A stretch of DNA of 45,892 bases from the NCBI GenBank assembly GCA_014382295.1, contig JACNJZ010000094.1, positions 1 to 45,892 on the forward strand, in the 5' to 3' direction. Shown here piece by piece: positions 3,413 through 18,507 of the stretch. This DNA comes from Candidatus Desulfobia pelagia (lineage in GTDB: Bacteria; Desulfobacterota; Desulfobulbia; Desulfobulbales; SURF-16). Below the pieces are notes generated by a model. That model saw nothing but the letters and a program-made list of their open reading frames with translations, was not told where the DNA came from and did not search any database. The translations under genes were made by a program, and so were the position numbers. The stretch's first letter is position 1. The number at the start of each line of letters is the position of its first letter.

Positions 3413-4513
3413 TTACGCCCCTGTTGTCAAGTGATCGCCAAGCCCCTTATGGGAAGAGAGAGTCCCATCTTCCCCATACAGGAAATGTAACGTTGCCAGC
3501 ATATTCGGCGGCCTGTAGTTTCGATCCATGTGCATTCTGTCGACTACACTATGATGCAAAACAGGATACTCTTCAGAAATTTCATCATTTTTATTAACCC
3601 TTACCCACCGACTGGCCAGTGTCGCCCTGGCAACAGGAAACCATCTGTCCTTCGGGTGCATTATACCAACAGGGGAAGGCTTGAGGGTGATATCGTCCGG
3701 TTCAACGGCACAGGGCTCGCCTGCATTTCTCAAATTGGCGTAGTCTATATCTTTCGGAGCGATACTTTCCAGGCCAAGATTCCGTTTTTTTATTTCCCTG
3801 AGAACAAAATCCAGCGCGATATCAGAGAGGCCGTCATGGAAAAAACCACCGCCAACATCGCCGTGGGACCCTGGAAACCATATCTCTGTCACCCTCTGGT
3901 CCTTATTCATCAATGTCGGCTGAAAAGCGATCCTGTTTTCATCCAGAGCCACCAGGTGAAGGGCTTCCTGGACCCCGGCCGCCACGGTGTTATTTTCAAA
4001 CACCACATCCGACACCGGCTTTTCATCGTCATCAAGGTTAGGCAGGCCAAGGGAGGCCACCGTATCAAAAACAGCAAGAAATCGAATTGCGGGTATTGCT
4101 TTTACCCCGTGCAAACCTTTCTGATGGAGGATGGCGGCAAAACGCCGGGCCAGCGCCGCCCCCCGGGAAAAACCAAACAGATAGACAGAATCGCCATCCT
4201 GCCAAATTTCCGACAAATCCTTCCGGGCCCTGTTCAATATCCTTCCGACATCCAGATTTTCCGGAGCAAACACCACATTAAACAACCTCTGCAAATGATT
4301 GCCATACGTGCCGACACCAGAATAATACAGGCCGTGCTGCCTTTCATTCTGTGCCTTGTTCAGCATATTGCCGCCGAGCAGAAGATGCAGTTTGACAATA
4401 TTGGTGATACTGCTGTCCTCTATCCTGCCAAGCCCAAACCACTCCCGTTCCTGCTCAGCATCTTTCGGATGGTTATTTGTTCCATCAAAACAGATGGTGA
4501 TTTTTTTACCCAT
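3413..4513 (-). CDS. DUF2235 alpha/beta hydrolase (Tle1 phospholipase-like catalytic domain)
   Basis: ICFDGTNN, YYSGVGT, FGFSRGAALAR nucleophile motif, VFDTV, ALDENR, WFPGSHGDVGGG. Confidence 0.9.
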   Translation of the reverse strand: MGKKITICFDGTNNHPKDAEQEREWFGLGRIEDSSITNIVKLHLLLGGNMLNKAQNERQHGLYYSGVGTYGNHLQRLFNVVFAPENLDVGRILNRARKDLSEIWQDGDSVYLFGFSRGAALARRFAAILHQKGLHGVKAIPAIRFLAVFDTVASLGLPNLDDDEKPVSDVVFENNTVAAGVQEALHLVALDENRIAFQPTLMNKDQRVTEIWFPGSHGDVGGGFFHDGLSDIALDFVLREIKKRNLGLESIAPKDIDYANLRNAGEPCAVEPDDITLKPSPVGIMHPKDRWFPVARATLASRWVRVNKNDEISEEYPVLHHSVVDRMHMDRNYRPPNMLATLHFLYGEDGTLSSHKGLGDHLTTGA

Positions 4514-5058: not shown

Positions 5059-7446
5059 ATGAGTGAAGATAAAAGCGAAGAAAAACAGGAAACAAAAAAA
5101 AGCTCCTCTGATCTAGAAAAAATAATTGTACCCGCCGAGCTTCCCATTCTGCCGCTCCATGGCTTTGTTTTTTTTCCAGGCATGGGCTTTCCCCTCCAGA
5201 TAAAAAGTGATTCGGCCAAAAAACTGATTGACGATATTCTGCTCGGTGACAGGCTCCTCGGACTTTTCACACATAAACCCGCCGCCAGTGAGGAAGAACA
5301 GAACACCCCCCCGGAGGGAGCCATTGAAGAACACCTCTATTCCATCGGCGTAATGGGATATATCCACAAACTGATTAAAGGGCCGGAAAACACCTATCAT
5401 GTTCTGACCAGCGGCCTTAAAAAAGTTCATATCACCACATACACCCAATCGGAACCCTACCTGAAAGCCGAGGTTGAAGAACTTGAACTGATTGAAGAAA
5501 CAGGGAAAGAAATCGAAGCGTTTGACCTTAACCTCCGCACCCAGTTCAAAAAACTGGCTGAGCTGACCATGCTGCCCGCCGAGGTCAGCCTTACCGCGGA
5601 ATCTATCATCAGTCCTTCTTTTACCGCCTATCTCATTGCCTCCATGCTCCATCTCCCCATTGAGGAAGAACAGGCAATTCTGGAAATAGCCAACTTGAAA
5701 GGACTGCTGCACAGAGTAACCGCTGACCTGAATAAACGGCTGGAAACAGCTAAAATGAGCCAGAAGATTCAGAAGTCCGCCAAAGACGATATCGACAAAA
5801 AACAGCGGGAATTCTTCCTTCGCGAGCAGATGAATGCCATCAAAAAAGAATTGGGAGAAGACAAGGACAACGTTGAGATTGTTGAACTGAGAGCCAAATT
5901 AGCAAAAGCCAAACTAAGCACAGAAGCAAAAGAAGTGGCGGAGAAGGAACTGAACAGGCTGGAGCGTATCCCGCCCTCGTCTCCCGAATACACGGTTTCA
6001 AGAAACTATCTTGACTGGCTGCTGGATCTTCCCTGGGAATTTTCAACAGAAGATAATATCGACATCAATAAGGCCAAAGAGGATCTCGACAAAGATCATT
6101 ACGGTCTGGAACGCATCAAAAAACGCATCATAGAATTTCTTGCCGTCCGCAAACTCAAACAGGACATGCACGGCCCGATTCTCTGTTTTGCCGGTCCTCC
6201 TGGCACAGGCAAGACATCTCTCGGGCAATCAATTGCGCGGACAATGGGAAGAAAATTTGTCCGCCTGTCTCTGGGCGGCGTTCGTGATGAGGCCGAAATA
6301 CGCGGTCACCGCCGTACTTATATCGGCGCCCTTCCCGGCCGGATCATCCAGAGCCTTCGCAAAGCCGGTTCCAACAACCCGCTTTTCATGCTTGATGAAA
6401 TCGACAAACTGGGCACCGATTTCCGGGGTGACCCGTCCTCGGCTCTTCTGGAAGTGCTTGATCCAGAGCAGAACTCCACCTTCAGCGATCATTACATGGA
6501 AGTTCCCTTTGATCTCTCCAAGGTCATGTTCATCACCACCGCCAATATGCTGGACACCATTCCTCCGCCCCTGCGTGACAGAATGGAAACCATCACCCTG
6601 TCAGGCTATACTGATGATGAAAAACTTCATATCGCCAAAAGACATCTTCTCGAAAAAGAACTTGACGCCCATGGCCTGACTGCCGACGACCTGACCTTCA
6701 CCGATGACAGTATCAGGGCTATTATCCGTTCTTATACCCGTGAGGCCGGTGTGCGAAACATTGAAAGAAAACTGGCCGGAGTCTGCCGCGGGGCTGCCAG
6801 CAAAATTGCCGCAGGTGAACCCGGGCCTTTCAATATCAACGTCGAAGATCTCGAAGATTTCCTAGGGCCGGTTGAGTTTTTCCCGGAAACAATGGCCCAC
6901 TCCTGGGGGCCCGGTCTGGCAACCGGCCTTGCCTGGACCCCGGTGGGCGGAGAACTCCTTTTTATCGAATCAGCCCAGATGAAGGGAAAAGGAGAATTAA
7001 AACTGACAGGAAAACTGGGCGATGTCATGAAAGAGTCCGCCAGTGCAGCCCTCACTTATATCCAGGCCCATTCACAGGAACTCGGTATTGACGAGGACCT
7101 TTTTGCCAAAAAAGACATCCACATCCATGTCCCCGAAGGAGCCACCCCCAAAGACGGACCGTCTGCAGGTGTTGCCATGGTCGTCTCCCTCACCTCACTT
7201 CTCACCGGCAGGCCGGTGCGTAAAGATGTGGCGATGACCGGGGAAATTACCCTGCGTGGTGATGTCCTGCCTGTGGGGGGAGTGAAAGACAAGGTCCTGG
7301 CCGCAGTACGATCCGGCATCACCGACATCATTTTGCCCGCACTCAACAAAAAAGATATTTCCGAGTTGCGTGAAAATGTCAGGGAAACAATTACCTTTCA
7401 TTATACGACCGACATCAAGGAAGCTTTGAAAGTGGCTATTCCTTAG
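5059..7446 (+). CDS. lon: ATP-dependent protease La
   Basis: LON N-domain, GPPGTGKTS Walker A, LDEIDK Walker B, PKDGPSAG catalytic Ser, VGGVKDK. Confidence 0.98.
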   Translation: MSEDKSEEKQETKKSSSDLEKIIVPAELPILPLHGFVFFPGMGFPLQIKSDSAKKLIDDILLGDRLLGLFTHKPAASEEEQNTPPEGAIEEHLYSIGVMGYIHKLIKGPENTYHVLTSGLKKVHITTYTQSEPYLKAEVEELELIEETGKEIEAFDLNLRTQFKKLAELTMLPAEVSLTAESIISPSFTAYLIASMLHLPIEEEQAILEIANLKGLLHRVTADLNKRLETAKMSQKIQKSAKDDIDKKQREFFLREQMNAIKKELGEDKDNVEIVELRAKLAKAKLSTEAKEVAEKELNRLERIPPSSPEYTVSRNYLDWLLDLPWEFSTEDNIDINKAKEDLDKDHYGLERIKKRIIEFLAVRKLKQDMHGPILCFAGPPGTGKTSLGQSIARTMGRKFVRLSLGGVRDEAEIRGHRRTYIGALPGRIIQSLRKAGSNNPLFMLDEIDKLGTDFRGDPSSALLEVLDPEQNSTFSDHYMEVPFDLSKVMFITTANMLDTIPPPLRDRMETITLSGYTDDEKLHIAKRHLLEKELDAHGLTADDLTFTDDSIRAIIRSYTREAGVRNIERKLAGVCRGAASKIAAGEPGPFNINVEDLEDFLGPVEFFPETMAHSWGPGLATGLAWTPVGGELLFIESAQMKGKGELKLTGKLGDVMKESASAALTYIQAHSQELGIDEDLFAKKDIHIHVPEGATPKDGPSAGVAMVVSLTSLLTGRPVRKDVAMTGEITLRGDVLPVGGVKDKVLAAVRSGITDIILPALNKKDISELRENVRETITFHYTTDIKEALKVAIP

Positions 7447-7485
7447 TTCTCTCCAGAAATTTCCACATCCAGTCGTTGCTTAACT

Positions 7486-7528
7486 AAAAAAAGCGGCGGA
7501 GAGGTTACCCTCTTCCACCGCTTTTTTT
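7486..7528. terminator. Bidirectional intrinsic terminator between convergent lon and the selenoprotein gene
   Basis: A7-GCGGCGGAGAGG-TTAC-CCTCTTCCACCGC-T7. Confidence 0.85.
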
Positions 7529-7551
7529 ATCAGCTATCGATGAGCGCTATG

Positions 7552-9687
7552 CTACTCAACAGCACAGAAATTAACCCATGAAGCATCATGGACCCTGACA
7601 TCGTCAAAGCCCAGGTAACGGAACATAAAGTAGGCGCTTCCGGCAAGCTGGCCAGTATTACAGCTTGTGATAACGGTATGCTTGGGAGTAATGCCATTTT
7701 TCTTCAGCATCCAGAGCAACTCATCCGGTTTTTTCAGCGCGCCGTTTTCCATATAGAGTGCGCTGAGAGGCAGGTTAATGGAGCCTGGAATCCTTCCGGC
7801 ACGTGCCGCCTGACCGTGTTTGGCCAAACCTTTTGCCTGGCTGACGATACGGGAATCGATAATCTTGACCATATTATTATCAAGATTTGCCCTGACATAA
7901 TCATTGTCAACCGTAAACCCTGGATTGACTGTGCCACCGAAGGCAACCTCTTCAGGCTCGACTTCCTCATCCGACATATGATAACCGGCCTCATGCCACC
8001 CTTCTATGCCGCCATCAAGATAAGAAACGTTGGTTGCACCGGCATATTCAAGTACCCAAATAATAAATCCGGCATTTTTCCCATCTTTGTCATATACGAC
8101 GATATGGTCATCAGCTTTTAAACCTTGTTCACCTATAATCTCAATAAGTTCATTATCTGCGATAAGCTGCATTGGGAAATCATCATCCCACGAGTGGCGT
8201 AATCCTGACTGAATCGGATCTAGAGGGACAGCACCTTTGATATGCCCCTTCTCATAAGGACCTTCCCCTCTTGCATCAACAATTTTCACACCTTTTTTCC
8301 CGATGTTATCATGCAGCCATTTGGCATCGACGACCATGTTATGCCTGACTTTGCTGGTATCAATATTGAGAGGCATGACCTTTTTACGCTTCTTGGGAAC
8401 CTTGTTGTCCGGTACGACAACCTTGGCATTTGCCTCTATTTCGTAGTCAAGAAGATCTTTTGTATCCAAAAAGAGCTCTCGGTTTCCATGGCAGTTATTA
8501 CAGTTGGCTGTCTGCCAGGTTTTACGCTGAATATTATGCGGTGAAGTACGCTTCCAGTTCGGAGTGTTGCTGAAGTTGGTGAACGCGTCTTTCACATAGA
8601 AATCAAAAAGTTTCGGATCCGTGGGTTCATGACGGACCAGGATATATTTATTCGTCTGGTTCGGCTCATCCTTGTCATAGTTAAGGCCAATTTTCATGCC
8701 TTCAACTTCTTTCTGGTTCTGGAAGTAGCGGAGGCCTTCATCGTCTTTACCGGTATGACAACTGTAGCAATTGACATATGTCTGGGAATGACATACCTGA
8801 CACTGGACTTTACCAACATGCAGATTATGATCTCGCACAGATCCATATTTCAGGTCCTGATGACAGTCCTCACAATTCACCATCTCTTTCAGATGGTAGC
8901 GGCCTTTCAAGCCTTCAGGAGCGGCAGCATGCATTTCTTCTGCCGGATGACAGGCCACACAGTCCATATCATACTTGGTCACATGAACGTCACCCTCACC
9001 GCGAGATCCGTAGTACTCAGCGCCTACCCTACTGCCATGACAGGCAGTACACTGGTTAAACGGATCAGACCGTTTCTGGAACATATGGCCATCTATAAAT
9101 CCTTTCTTGGCAAATTTCGGACGGCTGACATGACACCCGCCGCAACTTGTATGACATGCAGCACAATGACCTTTACGAGCCTCGTCAATTTCATGCCACT
9201 TGTTCATATCAGAACGGGTTTTCAGCACTGTTGTAAAAGTTGATAGAGTAGCATGCAGAGAATCTTTTGCCGTAGAGACTATATCTTCATGGCATTCCCC
9301 ACAGGCACCTTCAGGATTGTTAATGGATGGATGGGGATCAAAATCTTTATGGGCGCCGGCTTTAGTTTTATCAGCAGGATTTCCACCGTGACAGTTTTCA
9401 CAGCCGACCTCGCCATGATCTGTTTCCAGAAAATCACCAGACACCAGAACTTTTTCGACTGGCCCCAACGGGGCCACTTTTCCGCCTCAGCCTGCACCTG
9501 ACTGTTTGGCAGACCCCTTTTTCTTGACGACAGTTATATTTTCTTCCAACATTACTTCGTCAGTATGGCAGCCGATACAGCTCGACTCACTTGCAAAGGC
9601 CTTCCCGACACCAATAAAGGGAATCAGCCCTGCGGCCAGAATGGTGACACATGCACCAAACAAACATCGCTCTTTCCATTTTTCCAT
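7552..9687 (-). CDS. Predicted 711-aa selenocysteine-containing undecaheme cytochrome c with tandem rhodanese domains (Sec67 = TGA at 9489..9487); joins ORF-track ORFs 9487..9687 and 7552..9477
   Basis: Continuous frame ...GGT GCA GGC TGA GGC GGA AAA GTG GCC...; AGGAGGT SD and signal peptide only on the upstream part; SECIS-like hairpin after the TGA; CxxCH x11 (CIGCH, CENCH, CGECH, CAACH, CGGCH, CTACH, CVACH, CEDCH, CQVCH, CYSCH, CNNCH); rhodanese motifs GHIKGA, YLDGG, GRIPGS, SCNTG, DASW. Confidence 0.85.
9460..9476 (-). promoter_or_regulatory. Bacterial SECIS-like hairpin
   Basis: mRNA UGA-GGCGGAAAAG-UGGCCCC-GUU-GGGGCCA: perfect 7-bp stem; loop starts with GU, 18 nt downstream of the UGA. 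Confidence 0.8.
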
Positions 9688-9808
9688 GCTCTACCTCCTC
9701 ATTGTTTTTGAAAAAAACATTCATTCAGTGTTCATCGACATTAGGTAAGAACTTAGCGGTATGGCCGTGCTTGCCGACCAGTGCGTTTTTAATTGTCTGA
9801 CTTCATTG

Positions 9809-10996
9809 TTAATCATCATCGGAATCTAATTCTTCCCACCCGTCGGTCAGGGTTTCAAGAAAAACAACTAGATCTTCGAGTTCCTGGTTGGTCAGTTTCA
9901 GATTGCCGAGTTCCTCCCTGTTCACATTCTCGGCAACTTCAGGGTCTGGCCAACAGGAGACGTCACGAGTGTTATAGAAGGCCAAGACATTGAACAGCGT
10001 CTTATATACACCATTGTGCAGATAAGGGGCGGTGATTGCAACATTGCGAAGAGTTGGTACACGAAATTTGCCATTCTGCGCCGGATCATTGACAGTCTTT
10101 CCCAACCCCAGGTCAATGAAGGAAAAACCGTCAGGGTTCAGCTCAGGAGGTAAAGAGTAGAAAGGATTTTCCGGATTCCGAGGTGTCCCCAGATTGTCAT
10201 ATGTGAAATCAGTAAAAAGCGGCGGGGTCCCATCCTCTTCAGGTCTGCTTGGATGACAGGCAGCGCAGTTTCCCTTCTCTTCGTCATCAAAAAGCTTTAA
10301 ACCCCGTAATTCCTGTTCACTCAATTCAGCTTCACCCCGAAGCCAGTGGTCATACTTTGAACTGAAAGGATTTACCTCGGGGGTCATCTCATAAGCCGCA
10401 ATGGCATCTGCCATGTTGTCGAAAGCCAAGTCTGGAGTACTCAGGGCCTCAGATCCGTAAACTTCAATAAAAAGAGAAGCATAGCTAAGCTGCCTCAGTT
10501 TCTCAACAATGGTCAGCGTATCAGGATTGGCCATTTCCAGAGGATTAAGCGGTGGCCCCTGGGCTTGCTCGGCCAAAGAGTTAACCCGACCATCCCAGAA
10601 AAGCCCGCCAACCCAGACGTCTTCTCCTTTGTTGAAATGCAAAGGCGGCACAAAAGCAGCATAGGAAACAGTCATATCATTTCGATTGCCGAATAAACCG
10701 GGACGGGCTCCTTTGGAAACCGGCAGACCAGTTAAAGGATCAGCAAAGGCTATTTCAGGATCGTGGCAGGCTGAACAGTCCTGACCTGGTGGTGTCGAAA
10801 GGCTCTTCTCAAAAAACAGCAGCTTACCAAGGCGCTCCTTGGCATTAAAAGATGAATCAATTGAGACGACAGGTAACTCGTGATCATCTTCATCATGATC
10901 GTCATGTAAATTTTTAGCACAGCCACCGAGAAGGAACACCGCCAGCAGAGCAATGACGGACAACTCGCATAAATGAAATCTTTTCTGACCAACCAT
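9809..10996 (-). CDS. Diheme cytochrome c peroxidase / MauG-family lipoprotein
   Basis: Lipobox LLGGC, LGKLLFFE, CSACH, FWDGR, PPLNPLEM, CAACH, FRVPTLRNV..TAPYLHNG. Confidence 0.92.
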   Translation of the reverse strand: MVGQKRFHLCELSVIALLAVFLLGGCAKNLHDDHDEDDHELPVVSIDSSFNAKERLGKLLFFEKSLSTPPGQDCSACHDPEIAFADPLTGLPVSKGARPGLFGNRNDMTVSYAAFVPPLHFNKGEDVWVGGLFWDGRVNSLAEQAQGPPLNPLEMANPDTLTIVEKLRQLSYASLFIEVYGSEALSTPDLAFDNMADAIAAYEMTPEVNPFSSKYDHWLRGEAELSEQELRGLKLFDDEEKGNCAACHPSRPEEDGTPPLFTDFTYDNLGTPRNPENPFYSLPPELNPDGFSFIDLGLGKTVNDPAQNGKFRVPTLRNVAITAPYLHNGVYKTLFNVLAFYNTRDVSCWPDPEVAENVNREELGNLKLTNQELEDLVVFLETLTDGWEELDSDDD

Positions 10997-12569: not shown

Positions 12570-14060
12570 ATGATATGGTATCTGGAATCAACACTCACGG
12601 CGGTTCAAAAGAAAAACTGGATGGTTCATTTGTATACTTTTTTATTGAGAAAAGACATTCTCCCTGTCCATTATTATTGTTGGAAGACCCGCCTTTCCAC
12701 TCTCATTCCCCTGGCACTATTCGCCGCTCTTTTCTTGCTGCTTTCCGGCTGCACGTACACAGTTAACAACACTTTTCCTCCTGCAGTACCGGAAGCTCCT
12801 TCGTATTCACCTGCAGACCCATCAGGCGACATGCTTCCCCATCACTGGTGGACCGTCTTTGATGACCCAAAGCTTAACGCCAGTATTGACAAAGCCCTGT
12901 CAGACAATTTCACCCTCAAGAAAGGCTATGCCCGGATGTCCCAGGCACTTCATAGCCGAAAAAAAACAGCGTCTCTTCTCTATCCCCAGCTAGACAGTAA
13001 TTTTTCCGGAACTTCCACCTGGTTTTCCGGTGAAAGTCAGGAAAACCGTAATAATCTCACCCTGGATCTTTCATGGGAAATTGATTTCTGGGGCAAACTT
13101 TCGTCTGCCGACAAGGCGGCTTTGTTTGATTTTGAAGCCGGCAGAGATGATGTCGAAACAGTGGCACTGCTTCTCAGTTCACAGGTAGCAGACAACTATT
13201 TCCAGCTCATCGAGCAAAAACTACAGCTGGAACTACTAGAAAAACAGATCAAGGTCCATGAGACTTTTCTTGACCTTATAACGCTGCGATTTGCAAACGG
13301 TGCTGCTTCTGTTGTCGATGTATATCAGCAGCGCCAGCTCCTTGCTGCCGACCGAGCCAAAATGCCCCTTATTCATACCCAGATAGCAACCCTTGGAAAT
13401 CGCCTGGATATCCTCATGGGTATGGCCCCGGTCAGCACTTCACTGCCGACAACCTATTCCCTGCCCTCTCTGCCTCCGATACCGCTTCTTGGTGTCCCGG
13501 CAGACCTCCTGCAGAACAGACCTGACTTGCGGATGTTACACAAAAACCTCCTGGCTGCCGACCATCGAGTTGCTGCTGCTGTCGCTGACCGGCTGCCGCA
13601 GATCACCATCGGCGGCACCGGGGGACTGCTCAACGGTGATCTTTTCCTGACTCTTTTCGGCGATGCCTTTGCAAGCATTGTCAACTGGGGAAGTCTCAAA
13701 GGTGAAGTTGAAAAACAAAAGGCTGTTGTCCAGGAAATACTGGCAGACTATTCACAAAGCTATATTACTGCCATTGAAGAAGTTGAAAATGCTCTGGTAA
13801 CTGAAAAAAACCACATGGATCTCCTCAAGGCCCTTGATGACCAGCTGATCATATCCCAGGCAACCCTGAAGGAAACACGCAACCAATACATGCAGGGCCT
13901 AACTGATTATCTGCCGGTCCTCTCTGCACTTGTCTCTCTGCAGAATCTCGAAAGAGACATACTGACACGACACAGACAGCTCATTTCAATTCGTATCCTG
14001 CTGTACAGGGCATTAGGTGGAGCACCTATACTGGATGCTTTTCCACCTGCAACAGGATGA
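12570..14060 (+). CDS. RND efflux outer-membrane factor (NodT/OprM-type lipoprotein); true start probably further downstream
   Basis: Lipobox LLLSGC, WWTVFDDPKL, SWEIDFWG, PADLLQNRPD, LYRALGG. Confidence 0.92.
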   Translation: MIWYLESTLTAVQKKNWMVHLYTFLLRKDILPVHYYCWKTRLSTLIPLALFAALFLLLSGCTYTVNNTFPPAVPEAPSYSPADPSGDMLPHHWWTVFDDPKLNASIDKALSDNFTLKKGYARMSQALHSRKKTASLLYPQLDSNFSGTSTWFSGESQENRNNLTLDLSWEIDFWGKLSSADKAALFDFEAGRDDVETVALLLSSQVADNYFQLIEQKLQLELLEKQIKVHETFLDLITLRFANGAASVVDVYQQRQLLAADRAKMPLIHTQIATLGNRLDILMGMAPVSTSLPTTYSLPSLPPIPLLGVPADLLQNRPDLRMLHKNLLAADHRVAAAVADRLPQITIGGTGGLLNGDLFLTLFGDAFASIVNWGSLKGEVEKQKAVVQEILADYSQSYITAIEEVENALVTEKNHMDLLKALDDQLIISQATLKETRNQYMQGLTDYLPVLSALVSLQNLERDILTRHRQLISIRILLYRALGGAPILDAFPPATG

Positions 14061-14067
14061 ACACATA

Positions 14068-14160
14068 TCTCACAGAGCTCTCAAAGGCGCAGAGAAAAAC
14101 AAAAAAGCTCTGTGACTCTATGCACCCCAAGGGCATTTCCTTCGGGGCAACTCTGTGAGA
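14068..14160. repeat. Intergenic palindromic element with CACAGAG/CTCTGTG arms
   Basis: Perfect 10-bp terminal IR TCTCACAGAG/CTCTGTGAGA with internal degenerate units. Confidence 0.65.
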
Positions 14161-14186
14161 AATTTACAAAAAGAAGGTCCATATTA

Positions 14187-15419
14187 ATGAAATTTTTCAT
14201 TTCCATACTTGCCCTGGCACTGGCTGCAGTCATATCTTTCAGCCTCTATGCCAATAAACCCAAAACAGAAAAGAAACCTCCAGAGCGGACTGTTCCCATT
14301 GTTAAAACGCTTCATGTCCAGCCAGCCAGTGAACAGGTTTTTCTTGAGGCTTATGGTACTGTTATTCCTGCCCGCCAGATCAAACTCTCTGCCGAAGTGA
14401 GTGGCAGGGTCATCCGTCAGAATCCCGAAATGGTACCCGGAGGAGTAATAAATAAAGATGATTTTATTCTTGAAATAGAGCCGGCGGACTATACCCTTCA
14501 GGTTCAAGAATGCCTGGCAGAGTTAGCCAATGCCCAGTATGAGCTGGAACTTGAAGAAGGAAGACAGACAATAGCCAGGCAGGAATGGCTGCTTCTGGAA
14601 AAGGACCTTGAATCTTCCCTTGCCAGTAAAAGTCTGGCTCTCCGTGAACCCCACCTGAAACATGCCCAGGCCAAACTTGATGCGGCAAAAAGCCGACTGG
14701 AAGCAGCAGAACTGGATTTACAAAGAACAACAATCCGTTCACCATTCCATGCGCTTGTCCTTGAGGAGTTTGTTGAACATGGCCAGATCCTTGGGCAGCA
14801 GACACCCATTGCCACCCTTGCCGGGGCAGATCATTTCTGGATACAGGTATCGATCCCGGCTTCACTCATTCCCCGGATCACCTTCCCAAATGGGCCTAAA
14901 AAACAGGGAAGCACCGTCGAGGTCCTCCTTGAAGAAAAAAACGGCGGAACCGAAATGGTCCGCCACGGAAAACTGTTCAAATTACTCGGAGATCTCGACC
15001 CCAAAGGAAGAATGGCCCGTATTCTTATTTCAATTGAAGACCCGCTGAATTTATCTAAAAAACCGGACCCAGACTCCCTCAGTAAAATCCTCCTTGGCAG
15101 CTATATCAAGGTCAGGATAGATGCAGGCGTCATGGAGAACGTCTATACGATTCCACGACAGGCAATAAGAGAGGGTGATCGTCTCTGGGTTGTCAATGAA
15201 AATGGAATTCTCGACATCAGACCTGCACAGATACGCTGGCGCCGGGTTGATGAAATGCTTGTTTCCGCCGAAATCAAACCGGGAGAAGAGGTTATTATAA
15301 GCCGGCTCCAGTCTCCTCTTCCCGGAATGACTGTTCGCCTTGACAGAGGCAATGGTGTTGCCAAAACAGAGAACAGCACAATGATCACTTCTGAGGCGGC
15401 TCCAGATAATGGACGATAA
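14187..15419 (+). CDS. RND efflux periplasmic adaptor (MFP)
   Basis: ATG 14187 (AGAAGG SD) followed by a TM anchor; EVSGRV, coiled coil, TTIRSPF. Confidence 0.93.
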   Translation: MKFFISILALALAAVISFSLYANKPKTEKKPPERTVPIVKTLHVQPASEQVFLEAYGTVIPARQIKLSAEVSGRVIRQNPEMVPGGVINKDDFILEIEPADYTLQVQECLAELANAQYELELEEGRQTIARQEWLLLEKDLESSLASKSLALREPHLKHAQAKLDAAKSRLEAAELDLQRTTIRSPFHALVLEEFVEHGQILGQQTPIATLAGADHFWIQVSIPASLIPRITFPNGPKKQGSTVEVLLEEKNGGTEMVRHGKLFKLLGDLDPKGRMARILISIEDPLNLSKKPDPDSLSKILLGSYIKVRIDAGVMENVYTIPRQAIREGDRLWVVNENGILDIRPAQIRWRRVDEMLVSAEIKPGEEVIISRLQSPLPGMTVRLDRGNGVAKTENSTMITSEAAPDNGR

Positions 15420-18400
15420 ACCAAACCAGAAAAACATACTTGCCTGGATGGCGGGCAACCCTGTTGCAGCAAACCTGCTCATGCTGATCCTGATCATTGG
15501 CGGCCTGGTTACGGCATCCATGATCACCCAGGAAGTTTTCCCGGAATACGACCTCGATATCGTTGACGTCTCTGTCCACTATCCAGGTGCCAGCCCGGAA
15601 GAGGTTGAAAAAGGTATTATTCTGGCTCTTGAAGAAGAAATAAGGTCGCTGGATGATGTGGAAAGGGTTACAGCTGTGGCCGAAGAAGGTCGTGCCCGAA
15701 TCACCGTAGAACTCCTGTCCGGAGCAAATGCCAACAAAACACTCCAGGATATCAAAAACGGAATAGACCGGGTCACATCCCTCCCCGATGATGTGGAAAG
15801 GCCCCTCATCAGTCTGCAGACACGCAAACGAGAAGTAGTAAGGCTCGCTCTTTATGGCGACATAGACGAGTGGTCTCTTTTCAATATGGCTGACACAATC
15901 CGTGAAGAGCTGATTGACCTCCCGGAAATCACCCAGGTTGAGCTGCGGGGAATTCGCCAGCCGGAGCTCAGTATTGAGGTGCCACAAAAGACCTTGCGCT
16001 CTTTCGGCTTAACCCTTGGAGAAATAGCTGAGACAGTTAAAAAAAGGGCCATTGACATCCCTGCCGGCGGCATCAAGACTCCAGGCGGAGAAGTCCTTCT
16101 CCGCACAACCGAACGACGTGATGTTGCCAGCGAATTCGCCGACCTGGCCATTCTCAGCCAGGAAGACGGCACAGAAGTATCACTGGGTTCCATTGCCCAG
16201 ATCAATGACGGATATGCAGAGACTGATCGGGAGGCATACTATAACGGTAAAAGAGCGGTTCTCATTTATGTCTACAGGACAGGGGAGCAGACACCTAAAG
16301 ATATCTCCCTGGCCGTTCACCGCTACATAGACTCTCTCACCCCCACCCTCCCTGCAAATATAGGGTTTGCCGCCTACAATGACAGGTCCGAGCTCTATCA
16401 GGACAGGCTTAATCTTCTTCTGAACAACGGCACACTGGGCCTCCTTCTCGTCCTTGTATCCCTCGGCCTTTTTCTTGAGCCGCGCCTGGCATTCTGGGTA
16501 TCCATGGGAATACCGATTTCAATCGTCGGCTCCTTTATTCTTCTCGGCTTTATTGGCGGCAGCATCAACATGGTTTCCATGTTCGCCTTTATAATAACCC
16601 TGGGAATTGTGGTTGATGATGCGGTGGTGGTCGGTGAAAATATTTTCCACAAACGCCAGTCAGGGCTGCCTCCTCTCCAGGCTTCGATAGAAGGTGTAAA
16701 AGAAATGGCAGCACCGGTTATTATTGCCGTAGCCACAAATGTCATCGCCTTCCTTCCTCTTTTGTTTATCTCCGGATCAACAGGCCGCTTTTTCGCTATT
16801 TTACCGGCCGTCGTTATTGCTGTCTTTCTCATCTCCCTCGTGGAATGTCTCTTTATACTGCCATCCCACCTGGCATATCGCCGCAAAGAACGAAAGGGGA
16901 AAATTTTCATTTTCCTTGATATGATACCGGCCTACTTCAGCAAAAAACTTGAAAGATTTATCGCAACTGTTTTTTCTCCGACACTGCGCTTTGCACTTTC
17001 CTCCCGCTATATGGTCAGTGCACTGTCACTGGCAATACTGATAATTTCCTACGCCTATTGGGACAGCGGCTGGATCAATTTTTCATTCCGCCCAAGCATT
17101 CAGACAGACAGCATTGATGCGGAAATAGAACTCCCCTATGGCACCAATATTAATGAAGTCAGGAAGATTGCCAGGCTCGTTGAAGAGGGTGGCTTCCGTG
17201 TTATTGAAAAAAATGGCGGCAAAGACATCCTTGTAGGCGCCATGACTGACATAGGACGAAACGGCAGCAATACTGCCGAAATCACCTTTAATCTCGTCAC
17301 CCAGGATCAGCGGAGCCTCACGACAAAGGAATTCAGCACCCAGTGGCGAAAAGAAGTTGGCGACATAGCAGGCCTTGAAAAACTCTTTTTTGATTATCTT
17401 GTCGGGCCGGGAGGATCAGCAGCTATAAACGTCGAACTTACCCATCCTGACCCGCCAACCCTGGAACTTGCAGCCACAGATCTGGCAAAAATTCTATCCC
17501 AGTACAACGGCGTCACAGATATAAATGACGGGTTTGCCCAGGGCAAACCGCAATTCGACTTCAAAATGCTGCCAGAAGGACAATCCATGGGACTCAGCAC
17601 CCGCGACCTGGGCAGCCAGGTTCGCCATGCCTTTTATGGCGCAGAAGCTCTGCGGCAGCAACGCGGCAGGGATGAAGTCAAAGTCATGGTGCGCCTTCCT
17701 GAATCTGAGAGGAAGTCCCTTTTTCACCTGGAGCAGCTCTTGATTCTGACCCCCGATGGCGGCGAGATACCGCTTGCCAGAGCCGCGCTGATGAAAAAAA
17801 ACAGGGCCTACACCGAAATCAACAGGGTGGATGGCAAACGGGTTATCAACGTCACAGCCAATGTTGTCCCGGGCCTGGCAAACGAAAACAAAATACTCGA
17901 CAACCTCAAAACCGAATACCTGCCATCATTACTGGCCAATTACTCAGGGCTTAAATATTCTTTCCAGGGAAGAGAGCGTGAACGGCGCCAGGCCGTGCAT
18001 GATTTGTTTCTTGGGCTGGGCTTTATCCTTCCGGCAATTTTCTGCCTGTTGGCCATACTTTTCCGCAGCTATTCCCAGGCGGTCCTTGTGATGCTCTCCA
18101 TCCCGTTCGGACTTACAAGCGCCCTTATCGGTCACATCATCATGGGATATGATCTCAGCATTATCAGTATCTTTGGGATGATTGCCCTCTGTGGTGTTGT
18201 TATCAATGGCGGGCTGGTCTTTACAGTAACAGCCAATCGCCTGCTGAGCGCGGGAGAATCACCCCTTGATGCCGCCTTTAACGCAGCAACCAGACGTTTC
18301 CGGCCTATCATGCTGACGGCTATGACAACCTTTCTGGGACTAGCGCCAATGATTTTCGAACAGTCGGTACAAGCCCGATTCCTGGTTCCCATGGCCATTT

Positions 18401-18507
18401 CCCTGGGCTACGGGATCCTGTTCACAACCATTGTCATTCTCCTACTGATGCCCGCCCTGTGGCTGATCTATCATGATGTGAGGAGCTGGAGATTTTCAGA
18501 GAAGTAA
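15409..18507 (+). CDS. RND efflux permease (AcrB/AcrD/AcrF family)
   Basis: 1032 aa; NPVAANLLM, YPGASPEEVE, GIVVDDAVVVGEN, RFRPIMLT. Confidence 0.96.
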   Translation: MDDKPNQKNILAWMAGNPVAANLLMLILIIGGLVTASMITQEVFPEYDLDIVDVSVHYPGASPEEVEKGIILALEEEIRSLDDVERVTAVAEEGRARITVELLSGANANKTLQDIKNGIDRVTSLPDDVERPLISLQTRKREVVRLALYGDIDEWSLFNMADTIREELIDLPEITQVELRGIRQPELSIEVPQKTLRSFGLTLGEIAETVKKRAIDIPAGGIKTPGGEVLLRTTERRDVASEFADLAILSQEDGTEVSLGSIAQINDGYAETDREAYYNGKRAVLIYVYRTGEQTPKDISLAVHRYIDSLTPTLPANIGFAAYNDRSELYQDRLNLLLNNGTLGLLLVLVSLGLFLEPRLAFWVSMGIPISIVGSFILLGFIGGSINMVSMFAFIITLGIVVDDAVVVGENIFHKRQSGLPPLQASIEGVKEMAAPVIIAVATNVIAFLPLLFISGSTGRFFAILPAVVIAVFLISLVECLFILPSHLAYRRKERKGKIFIFLDMIPAYFSKKLERFIATVFSPTLRFALSSRYMVSALSLAILIISYAYWDSGWINFSFRPSIQTDSIDAEIELPYGTNINEVRKIARLVEEGGFRVIEKNGGKDILVGAMTDIGRNGSNTAEITFNLVTQDQRSLTTKEFSTQWRKEVGDIAGLEKLFFDYLVGPGGSAAINVELTHPDPPTLELAATDLAKILSQYNGVTDINDGFAQGKPQFDFKMLPEGQSMGLSTRDLGSQVRHAFYGAEALRQQRGRDEVKVMVRLPESERKSLFHLEQLLILTPDGGEIPLARAALMKKNRAYTEINRVDGKRVINVTANVVPGLANENKILDNLKTEYLPSLLANYSGLKYSFQGRERERRQAVHDLFLGLGFILPAIFCLLAILFRSYSQAVLVMLSIPFGLTSALIGHIIMGYDLSIISIFGMIALCGVVINGGLVFTVTANRLLSAGESPLDAAFNAATRRFRPIMLTAMTTFLGLAPMIFEQSVQARFLVPMAISLGYGILFTTIVILLLMPALWLIYHDVRSWRFSEK

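Follow-up and report, generated by a model that had tools for sequence, protein, structure and literature searches.

An in-frame UGA and a rhodanese partner point to a widespread family of undecaheme selenocytochromes in sulfur-cycling bacteria

We analysed a 45,892-nt stretch of DNA from Candidatus Desulfobia pelagia (GenBank assembly GCA_014382295.1, contig JACNJZ010000094.1, positions 1 to 45,892; hereafter the window) and found on its minus strand, at 9687..7552, a gene interrupted by an in-frame TGA. Judging from its sequence and that of its relatives, the gene product is almost certainly a periplasmic selenoprotein, in which an exported 11-heme c-type cytochrome with a loop carrying selenocysteine (Sec) at residue 67 is fused to a tandem rhodanese. 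The UGA at codon 67 very probably is a true Sec codon and the protein a true selenoprotein. A preliminary description of the window had proposed that one exported polypeptide combines a genuine Sec and a heme wire with a tandem rhodanese, inactive in its N-terminal and active in its C-terminal domain, and this proposal was borne out by the conservation of the UGA, a hairpin resembling a selenocysteine insertion sequence (SECIS), the Sec machinery of the host, and the existence of both fused and split forms of the gene.

The gene begins at an ATG (9687-9685), carries the in-frame TGA as codon 67 (9489-9487) and ends at a TAA (7554-7552). Translation with genetic code table 11 splits it into a 66-aa open reading frame (ORF; 9687..9487) and a 641-aa ORF starting from a GTG at 9477. 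With the UGA read as Sec, the 711 codons plus stop encode a 711-aa protein consisting of a signal peptide, heme 1, the Sec loop, hemes 2-11 and the tandem rhodanese. The span given in the preliminary description (7552-9510) included the TGA; however, the gene is the minus-strand 9687..7552, and the first 59 codons, which encode the signal peptide and heme 1, had been missed.

A protein search of 5.8 billion sequences returned 595 homologues (clusters at 90% identity). The 120 homologues listed were 549-652 aa long and each covered no more than 90% of the query. All 14 homologues that were fetched began downstream of residue 67, 12 of them at the x-A-P-L-E-P segment directly after the Sec, so the public homologues appear to be gene calls truncated at the conserved UGA. 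When residues 30-110 were used as the query, no protein of 391-1245 aa joining the upstream part to the rest was found, and the five matches each covered at most 49% of the region.

We then examined the site in DNA, using one-genome-per-species contigs and taking the best 80 of 122 stretches that encode relatives, which gave 79 distinct loci. A regular expression for CxxCH followed after 22-24 residues by G-x-G-[TGA]-G-G, read in frame with the cytochrome that lies downstream, matched in 74 of the 79 loci. G-x-G-U-G-G was seen by eye in two more, L016, whose contig begins after heme 1, and L076. The remaining three (L066, L074 and L078) were left out of the site count, as their contigs end before the region. 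UGA was present in all 76 loci covering the site, in addition to the window, and the frame was continuous over it in every case; none had Cys, a sense codon or another stop at this position. The 66 complete ORFs each contained exactly one internal UGA, with 11 CxxCH motifs in 62 and 10 in the other four. At L076 (5700-6500) the Sec TGA was kept, but an in-frame stop immediately follows L-E-P and the frame shifts further on, which marks this locus as a pseudogene or a long-read assembly error.

A SECIS-like hairpin, GUGGCCCC-GUU-GGGGCCAG, lies at 9459..9477 on the minus strand. Its stem of 8 bp begins 12 nt past the first base of the UGA, and its apical loop starts with G. The position of the hairpin was the same in nearly all loci. 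Across 75 aligned sequences (68 distinct rows), 94.3% of the cells were paired, and four of the eight stem pairs showed changes on both sides (e.g. GCU/GAG, GUU/GAA, GCC/GGG and GCG/GCG), with synonymous Ala codons co-varying with the Glu, Gly or Ala two codons on. The observed pairing and covariation was reached by none of 500 shuffles and by no slid register. The 17-nt spacing from the UGA to the loop and the small loop beginning with G agree with the description of bacterial SECIS elements quoted in the available part of PMC13188914. Two results at the hairpin speak for a real stop codon instead: an Rfam scan of 7000-10500 gave no bacterial SECIS family, only sub-threshold chance matches, and the minimum free energy z-score of the window hairpin was just -1.28, which is not exceptional by free energy alone.

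The UGA as a real stop would leave either a gene for a 66-aa monoheme peptide and a separate 641-aa gene from the GTG at 9477, or a pseudogene. All public gene calls examined do split the gene in this way. However, the codon was TGA, and never TAA, TAG or sense, at all 76 loci, which are spread over several phyla and keep the frame; the hairpin covaries; loop residues before and after the codon are invariant, although no SECIS constraint acts upstream of it; and Cys occurs at the site in distant relatives. The product translated without read-through would have 641 aa, 10 CxxCH motifs and no signal peptide, which is required for heme attachment. The host genome (97% complete, 224 contigs) also encodes a full Sec machinery, with selB (367 bits), tRNA-Sec (73 bits), selD (366 bits) and selA (625 bits) all above curated cut-offs. 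A real stop is therefore highly improbable. The use of UGA as a general sense codon in an alternative genetic code was rejected because TGA terminates many of the homologous genes.

The host selD (contig C204, 4867-5787, minus strand) itself has an in-frame TGA, with the N-terminus reading ...NVKAAGUASKL..., and lies about 1.6 kb from the tRNA-Sec gene (C204, 3146-3239, minus strand). A resemblance between this SelD loop and that of the window protein was considered and dropped, since KAAGUASKL is only loosely like SGAGUGGK.

The signal peptide (residues 1-32, 9592..9687), of the Sec export pathway type, is a hydrophobic N-terminus that ends in A-F-A, after which cleavage is inferred, and it forms a helix over residues 2-20 in the AlphaFold2 (AF2) model. 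The motif LFGAC (residues 9-13) was rejected as a lipoprotein signal because it lies too near the N-terminus and is not conserved. Heme 1 binds at CIGCH (residues 37-41, 9565..9579), of which C37, C40 and H41 are invariant in the 63 full-length sequences over which residue conservation was counted. The TGA (9487..9489) follows in a Gly-rich segment between hemes 1 and 2, where read-through gives KKKGSAKQSGAG-U-GGK, in agreement with the placement of the Sec in the preliminary description. The motif scan and AF2 model place the ten CxxCH motifs of hemes 2-11 in a cytochrome core at residues 96-400 (8488..9402). The eleven motifs of the protein start at residues 37, 96, 129, 175, 182, 213, 243, 272, 296, 307 and 396. 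A marginal Pfam match to PF22113, an MtrC/OmcA-type domain II/IV, covered residues 181-331 (31.8 bits, cut-off 30).

A linker of about 45 residues separates the last heme motif from the rhodanese domains, which together gave a Pfam rhodanese match (PF00581, E = 3e-31) in two stretches, as in a tandem rhodanese. Domain 1 (residues ~450-570, 7978..8340) has Asp533 in the catalytic position (IVVYDKDG) and is of the inactive type, and domain 2 (residues ~590-705, 7573..7920) has the active-site loop C676-N-T-G-Q-L-A (TSCNTGQLA); both residues had been read correctly in the preliminary description. Position 533 is mostly Asp in the 63 sequences, with Ala or Cys in some, while Cys676 (codon at 7660..7662) is kept in 62. 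The protein ends in NFCAVE. The additional Cys pointed out earlier in this C-terminus is indeed present, but it is lineage-specific, a Cys after W704 occurring in only 26 of the 63 sequences. Other C-terminal variants were SWCxxx in some clades and WSRTR without Cys in many, and an extended C-terminus, ...FVRYPGCGY, with a Gly-flanked Cys two residues from the end, was seen in Desulfobacterales metagenome-assembled genomes (MAGs; L031, L033-L035, L037, L038, L043, L070 and relatives). In Syntrophia-type MAGs (L027, L029 and L030) the third heme motif is changed to CGQCK or CGSCK and accompanied by an insertion, which leaves 10 canonical CxxCH motifs.

The invariant residues around the Sec were C37, C40, H41, L47, S59, G64, G66, U67, G68, G69, V71, L74, K79, V80, F86 and H91, which gives the loop S59-x4-G64-x-G66-U67-G68-G69. 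The loop is evidently constrained at the protein level, because a SECIS element cannot explain conservation upstream of the codon. Outside the heme motifs, conserved Cys or Sec was limited to U67 and C676. The cytochrome part has 11 conserved non-motif His residues (91, 113, 145, 174, 201, 235, 253, 287, 290, 353 and 384), which suffice for bis-His ligation of the 11 hemes, so no heme needs the Sec as a ligand.

An AF2 model built from a 38-sequence alignment had a mean predicted local distance difference test (pLDDT) score of 69.9, with residues 23-81 below 50, too low for use at the Sec loop. The model that took its place, built from 108 sequences including distant relatives, had a mean pLDDT of 93.3 and a predicted template modelling score of 0.89, with block-mean pLDDT of 84 for residues 51-60 and 81 for residues 61-70. 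According to this model the protein is compact, its domains pack against each other in a defined way, and the Sec loop takes up a set position instead of being disordered. The preliminary description had suggested that a Sec arm may shuttle sulfane sulfur between the rhodanese Cys and a heme centre, or may ligate a heme. Given its invariance in 63 of 63 sequences and its pLDDT of ~81-84, the Sec loop resembles an ordered active-site loop more than a flexible linker. The Foldseek matches listed were all rhodaneses, among them RhdA (1e0c) with a target-normalised TM score of 0.86 and a root-mean-square deviation of 2.1 Å.

The cytochrome and rhodanese are fused in 62 related loci, and in other lineages they are encoded side by side. 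At L081 (a Desulfuromusa MAG), a 438-aa Sec cytochrome with 11 CxxCH is followed after 49 nt by a 303-aa tandem rhodanese with its own signal peptide, and L080 has the same split layout. All five split loci (L080, L081, L089, L090 and L091) have a gene for a signal-peptide-bearing tandem rhodanese directly downstream on the same strand. L089 (3237-3500) has a second signal-peptide rhodanese gene after the first, giving a Sec cytochrome and two rhodaneses in a row. Three of these five, the cytochrome-only loci inspected from the bacterial family of the window, carry Sec in A-G-U-G-V and 11 CxxCH motifs. Since some lineages fuse the cytochrome to the rhodanese and others keep the two genes adjacent, there is good evidence that they act together, as a conserved functional pair under obligatory genetic coupling.

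We ran an exhaustive HMMER search against 1.84 billion representatives, which gave 7,104 matches at E <= 1e-3 and 171 at E <= 1e-30. Among them were many cytochrome-only proteins of 370-560 aa with 33-47% identity and a homologous 11-heme core. At least 10 of 150 representatives begin exactly at A-P-L-E-P-W-E-K-V, as expected of truncated Sec forms. Of 31 distant relatives that aligned over position 67, an alignment that is uncertain in the loop at 33-40% identity, 15 had a Cys at the site or no more than 2 residues off, in eight cases as C-G-G, and the other 16 had none (Tyr, Trp, His, Met, Leu and others). The stand-alone undecaheme cytochromes (e.g. L081, L089-L091, P0134 and P0204) thus share the core of the window protein in unfused form, and carry at the same loop position either Sec (L080, L081 and L089-L091) or Cys-Gly-Gly (the eight of 31), whereas about half of the distant members spanning the site, unlike the window family, have neither Cys nor Sec. 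The preliminary description had staked its reading on residue 67 being kept as Sec or Cys; it was Sec throughout the close relatives, and roughly half of the distant relatives spanning the site had Cys there. None of the 10 superfamily members tested reached the cut-off of a named NCBIfam family, and an ESM Atlas search returned generic multiheme cytochrome clusters only.

By record titles, the carriers are mainly sulfur-cycling Desulfobulbia, Desulfobacterales, Desulfuromusa and Nitrospirota, and the host itself has dsrA (569 bits). In the bacterial family of the window, 12 of 40 genomes had a match, six of them (the host included) with the full fusion and others with cytochrome-only relatives. 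Among 61 genomes sampled from the family of the sole Geobacteraceae carrier, the fusion was present in that carrier only.

MccSep (ExtKL, GSU2937-2936) of Geobacter sulfurreducens, published in August 2026, is a pentaheme selenoprotein of the periplasm that reduces polysulfide and is essential for respiration of elemental sulfur (S0); its Sec325 adjoins a His/Cys-ligated heme (NCBIfam NF040886; PDB 9wt8-9wtc; PMC13510729). The MccSep gene cluster also encodes a rhodanese-like lipoprotein, ExtH, according to the accessible portion of PMC5877670. The window protein is like MccSep in being a periplasmic multiheme Sec cytochrome of sulfur-cycling Desulfobacterota and Nitrospirota, with a single Sec beside Gly in a loop, a SECIS hairpin just 3' of the UGA, routine splitting into two gene calls and a genetic association with rhodanese. 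However, it has 11 hemes rather than five, its Sec is placed between hemes 1 and 2, close to the N-terminus, rather than in a C-terminal Ig-like domain, it has no conserved heme-ligating Cys, its rhodanese is fused, and there are no Cys forms among its close relatives.

Comparison of the sequences showed that the window protein is not a member of the MccSep/ExtKL family. NF040886 (cut-off 250 bits) was not among the NCBIfam matches of the window protein at E <= 0.1, and 9wt8, although contained in the database copy, was not in the best 60 of 71 PDB matches (E <= 1) of the family profile. The host has a true MccSep elsewhere in the genome (C67:14549-15727; L082:1459-2697, plus strand), with an NF040886 score of 417.5 bits, five CxxCH motifs, a PDB 9wt8 match of 4e-39 and one in-frame TGA in HRIPDGULW. 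BLASTP of the window protein against this host MccSep gave 26.9 bits, driven by the CxxCH motifs. Thus, two multiheme selenocytochromes that are unrelated to each other occur in the host. In two further carriers, G040 and G041, no MccSep exceeded the cut-off.

Like the tandem rhodaneses RhdA (1e0c), bovine TST and E. coli SseA, the window protein has an inactive N-domain and a catalytic Cys in a six-residue loop of the C-domain, and the family profile matched 1e0c with E = 3e-33. Unlike them, it is exported and fused (in split forms, adjacent) to an 11-heme selenocytochrome. With 108 bits for the SseA equivalog NF008557, whose cut-off is 250, the window protein is no SseA orthologue, contrary to the names given in JGI records. 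The score for the octaheme tetrathionate reductase (OTR) family TIGR04315 was likewise below the cut-off (23.1 against 375 bits, residues 231-304).

In Wolinella succinogenes, Sud is a periplasmic protein of rhodanese fold that passes polysulfide sulfur to the respiratory reductase PsrABC. Sud is single-domain and its reductase is a molybdoenzyme, whereas the window protein has a tandem rhodanese with a heme/Sec partner, and Sud (PDB 1qxn) was only a weak match of the family profile (E 0.063). SoxY has a GGCGG motif at the extreme C-terminus of a non-heme carrier. The window protein shares with it a Gly-flanked chalcogen nucleophile, but carries the motif internally, at residue 67 of 711. No SoxY, TsdA or SoxA family matched at E <= 0.1 in Pfam or NCBIfam, so the likeness to SoxY is one of short motifs, as had been cautioned from the outset. 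His/Cys-ligated hemes occur in TsdA, SoxAX and DsrJ. TsdA and SoxAX have in common with the proposed role that sulfur chemistry takes place on c-type cytochromes (cited in PMC13510729).

A sulfur-redox role, as first proposed, is plausible by likeness to the polysulfide reductase MccSep. On the same analogy, its most likely function is the Sec-dependent reduction of sulfane sulfur or polysulfide in the periplasm, and we give the full mechanistic proposal about an even chance. The rhodanese would first take up sulfane sulfur from polysulfide, S0-derived species or thiosulfate as a Cys676 persulfide, a role parallel to that of Sud for Psr and possibly of ExtH for MccSep. The Sec67 selenolate would then attack the S-S bond to form an Se-S intermediate, and electrons delivered through the 11-heme wire would reduce this intermediate and release sulfide. 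The reductive direction was judged likelier because of the MccSep precedent. A selenenyl-sulfide relay between Sec67 and Cys676 and a Sec-at-heme site may be regarded as two concrete chemical options.

Several observations weigh against this reductase proposal. Its substrate and direction rest on analogy to a non-homologous enzyme. The cytochrome domain has no conserved non-motif Cys, so its chemistry must differ from that of MccSep, where a Cys-ligated heme stands beside the Sec. A heme wire arranged in sequence order could put heme 1 and Sec67 far from the C-terminal rhodanese. The true MccSep of the host argues for a different substrate or role for the window protein. P0125, a 715-aa cytochrome-rhodanese fusion with 37% identity, has Tyr (RGEGYAVKK) at the Sec position, and 16 of the 31 distant relatives have no Cys there, so the partnership with rhodanese is not strictly dependent on a chalcogen residue. 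The gene neighbourhood gives no pathway clue: in flank clustering of 73 loci, the best neighbour was a membrane multiheme protein of ~485 aa, mostly convergent, at 19 loci, and a small tetraheme cytochrome was directly downstream in nine.

Operation in the opposite direction is rather unlikely. Here, sulfide, protein-bound sulfane sulfur or thiosulfate would be oxidised in the periplasm with electrons entering the 11-heme wire and Sec67 acting like the catalytic Cys of TsdA or SoxAX. Such a reaction could be the oxidative half of disproportionation of sulfur, or it could be a route by which Desulfobulbales oxidise sulfide. Desulfobulbia and Desulfocapsa-type bacteria with a Dsr pathway, from lineages that disproportionate or oxidise sulfur, make up many of the carriers, and the accessible part of PMC13047784 reports highly expressed periplasmic rhodaneses in Desulfurivibrio alkaliphilus during sulfide oxidation/disproportionation. 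The reductive reaction would already be covered by the host MccSep, whose authors liken its chemistry to the reverse of that of TsdA and SoxAX (PMC13510729). However, the split form also occurs in Desulfuromusa-type sulfur reducers, and no His/Cys-type heme signature is evident in a protein that has 11 conserved His for 11 hemes.

That same His count is an argument against Sec67 being the distal axial ligand of one c-heme, probably heme 1 or 2, in a His/selenolate catalytic heme, which we consider distinctly unlikely. Such a heme would be the selenium counterpart of the His/Cys hemes in TsdA, SoxAX and MccSep, and the sulfane sulfur that the rhodanese delivers would bind to the Se, or be taken off it, right at the iron. 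The invariant and confidently modelled loop fits this arrangement, as does the finding that the aligned residue in distant relatives is often Cys, His, Met, Tyr or Trp, that is, a potential ligand or stacking residue.

Very unlikely, too, is a reductase of selenite, tellurite or another chalcogen oxyanion, or a selenium-acquisition protein, in which the rhodanese would hold a perselenide and Sec67 would attack the oxyanion. Selenite is also reduced by MccSep, but polysulfide is its preferred substrate (PMC13510729). Rhodanese as a perselenide carrier appears in a title in the reference list of PMC5877670. The window protein showed weak NCBIfam similarity to proteins of the selenite/tellurite Ext operon of Geobacter (ExtM 7.5e-6, ExtH 0.022; for P0125, ExtH 2e-13); however, its scores were far under the cut-offs (24.5 against 800 bits and 13.8 against 200 bits, respectively). 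The 11-heme wire and the wide spread in sulfur-cycling anaerobes suggest a bulk respiratory substrate over a trace element.

Around the gene, a same-strand gene for a di-heme cytochrome c peroxidase/MauG-like protein (9809-10996, minus strand; PF03150, 1.1e-37) lies 122 nt upstream; it was rejected as a partner, being outside the 14 most shared flank clusters (the 14th is found at 7 of 73 loci). A promoter and terminator scan at the locus gave nothing decisive. A GC-rich hairpin between A-runs and T-runs (7481-7531) separates the Sec gene from the convergent lon (5059-7446, plus strand) and looks like a bidirectional terminator; in Rfam it gave sub-threshold microRNA matches only. The window also encodes a protein with a Tle1-like phospholipase domain of the type VI secretion system (3413-4513, minus strand; PF09994, 2.3e-42) and a resistance-nodulation-division efflux operon (12570-18507, plus strand; OEP, HlyD and AcrB), both unrelated to the Sec gene.

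In the literature searched, which took in the main text of the MccSep paper and passages of PMC13188914, PMC9312934, PMC13047784, PMC12545173, PMC13490349, PMC5516251, PMC3739170, PMC1914089 and bioRxiv 10.1101/2021.03.15.435355, we found no description of an 11-heme Sec cytochrome with rhodanese. The part of a 2026 catalogue of prokaryotic selenoprotein families that was available lists ExtKL, the GSU2204 family, octaheme OTR and five rhodanese forms (PMC13188914). Its rhodanese 'Form 1' (PF00581, motif UxxS, WP_010941598.1) might conceivably belong to the present family, where U-G-G-S is found; against this, just one carrier had the fusion among the 61 genomes sampled from its family.

MccSep has so far been the sole characterised multiheme cytochrome selenoenzyme of sulfur metabolism. 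The family described here is a second, unrelated family of multiheme selenoenzymes that is systematically mis-annotated, and it represents a second solution to a similar problem, in which the heme wire is longer, the Sec is placed differently, a heme-ligating Cys is absent and the rhodanese is built in. It is a large family, as its 595 clusters show, spread over sulfate reducers, sulfur disproportionators, sulfur reducers, Nitrospirota and other phyla. Because the signal peptide, heme 1 and Sec are cut off in the public records seen, metabolic reconstructions read a cytoplasmic 'SseA/rhodanese-like protein', and correct annotation would alter models of periplasmic sulfur handling in Desulfobulbales and their relatives. 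The absence of Cys forms among close relatives makes the family a natural test of strict Sec retention beside a heme chain, and its correct annotation would offer a concrete candidate for steps in S0/polysulfide respiration or disproportionation that are poorly understood.

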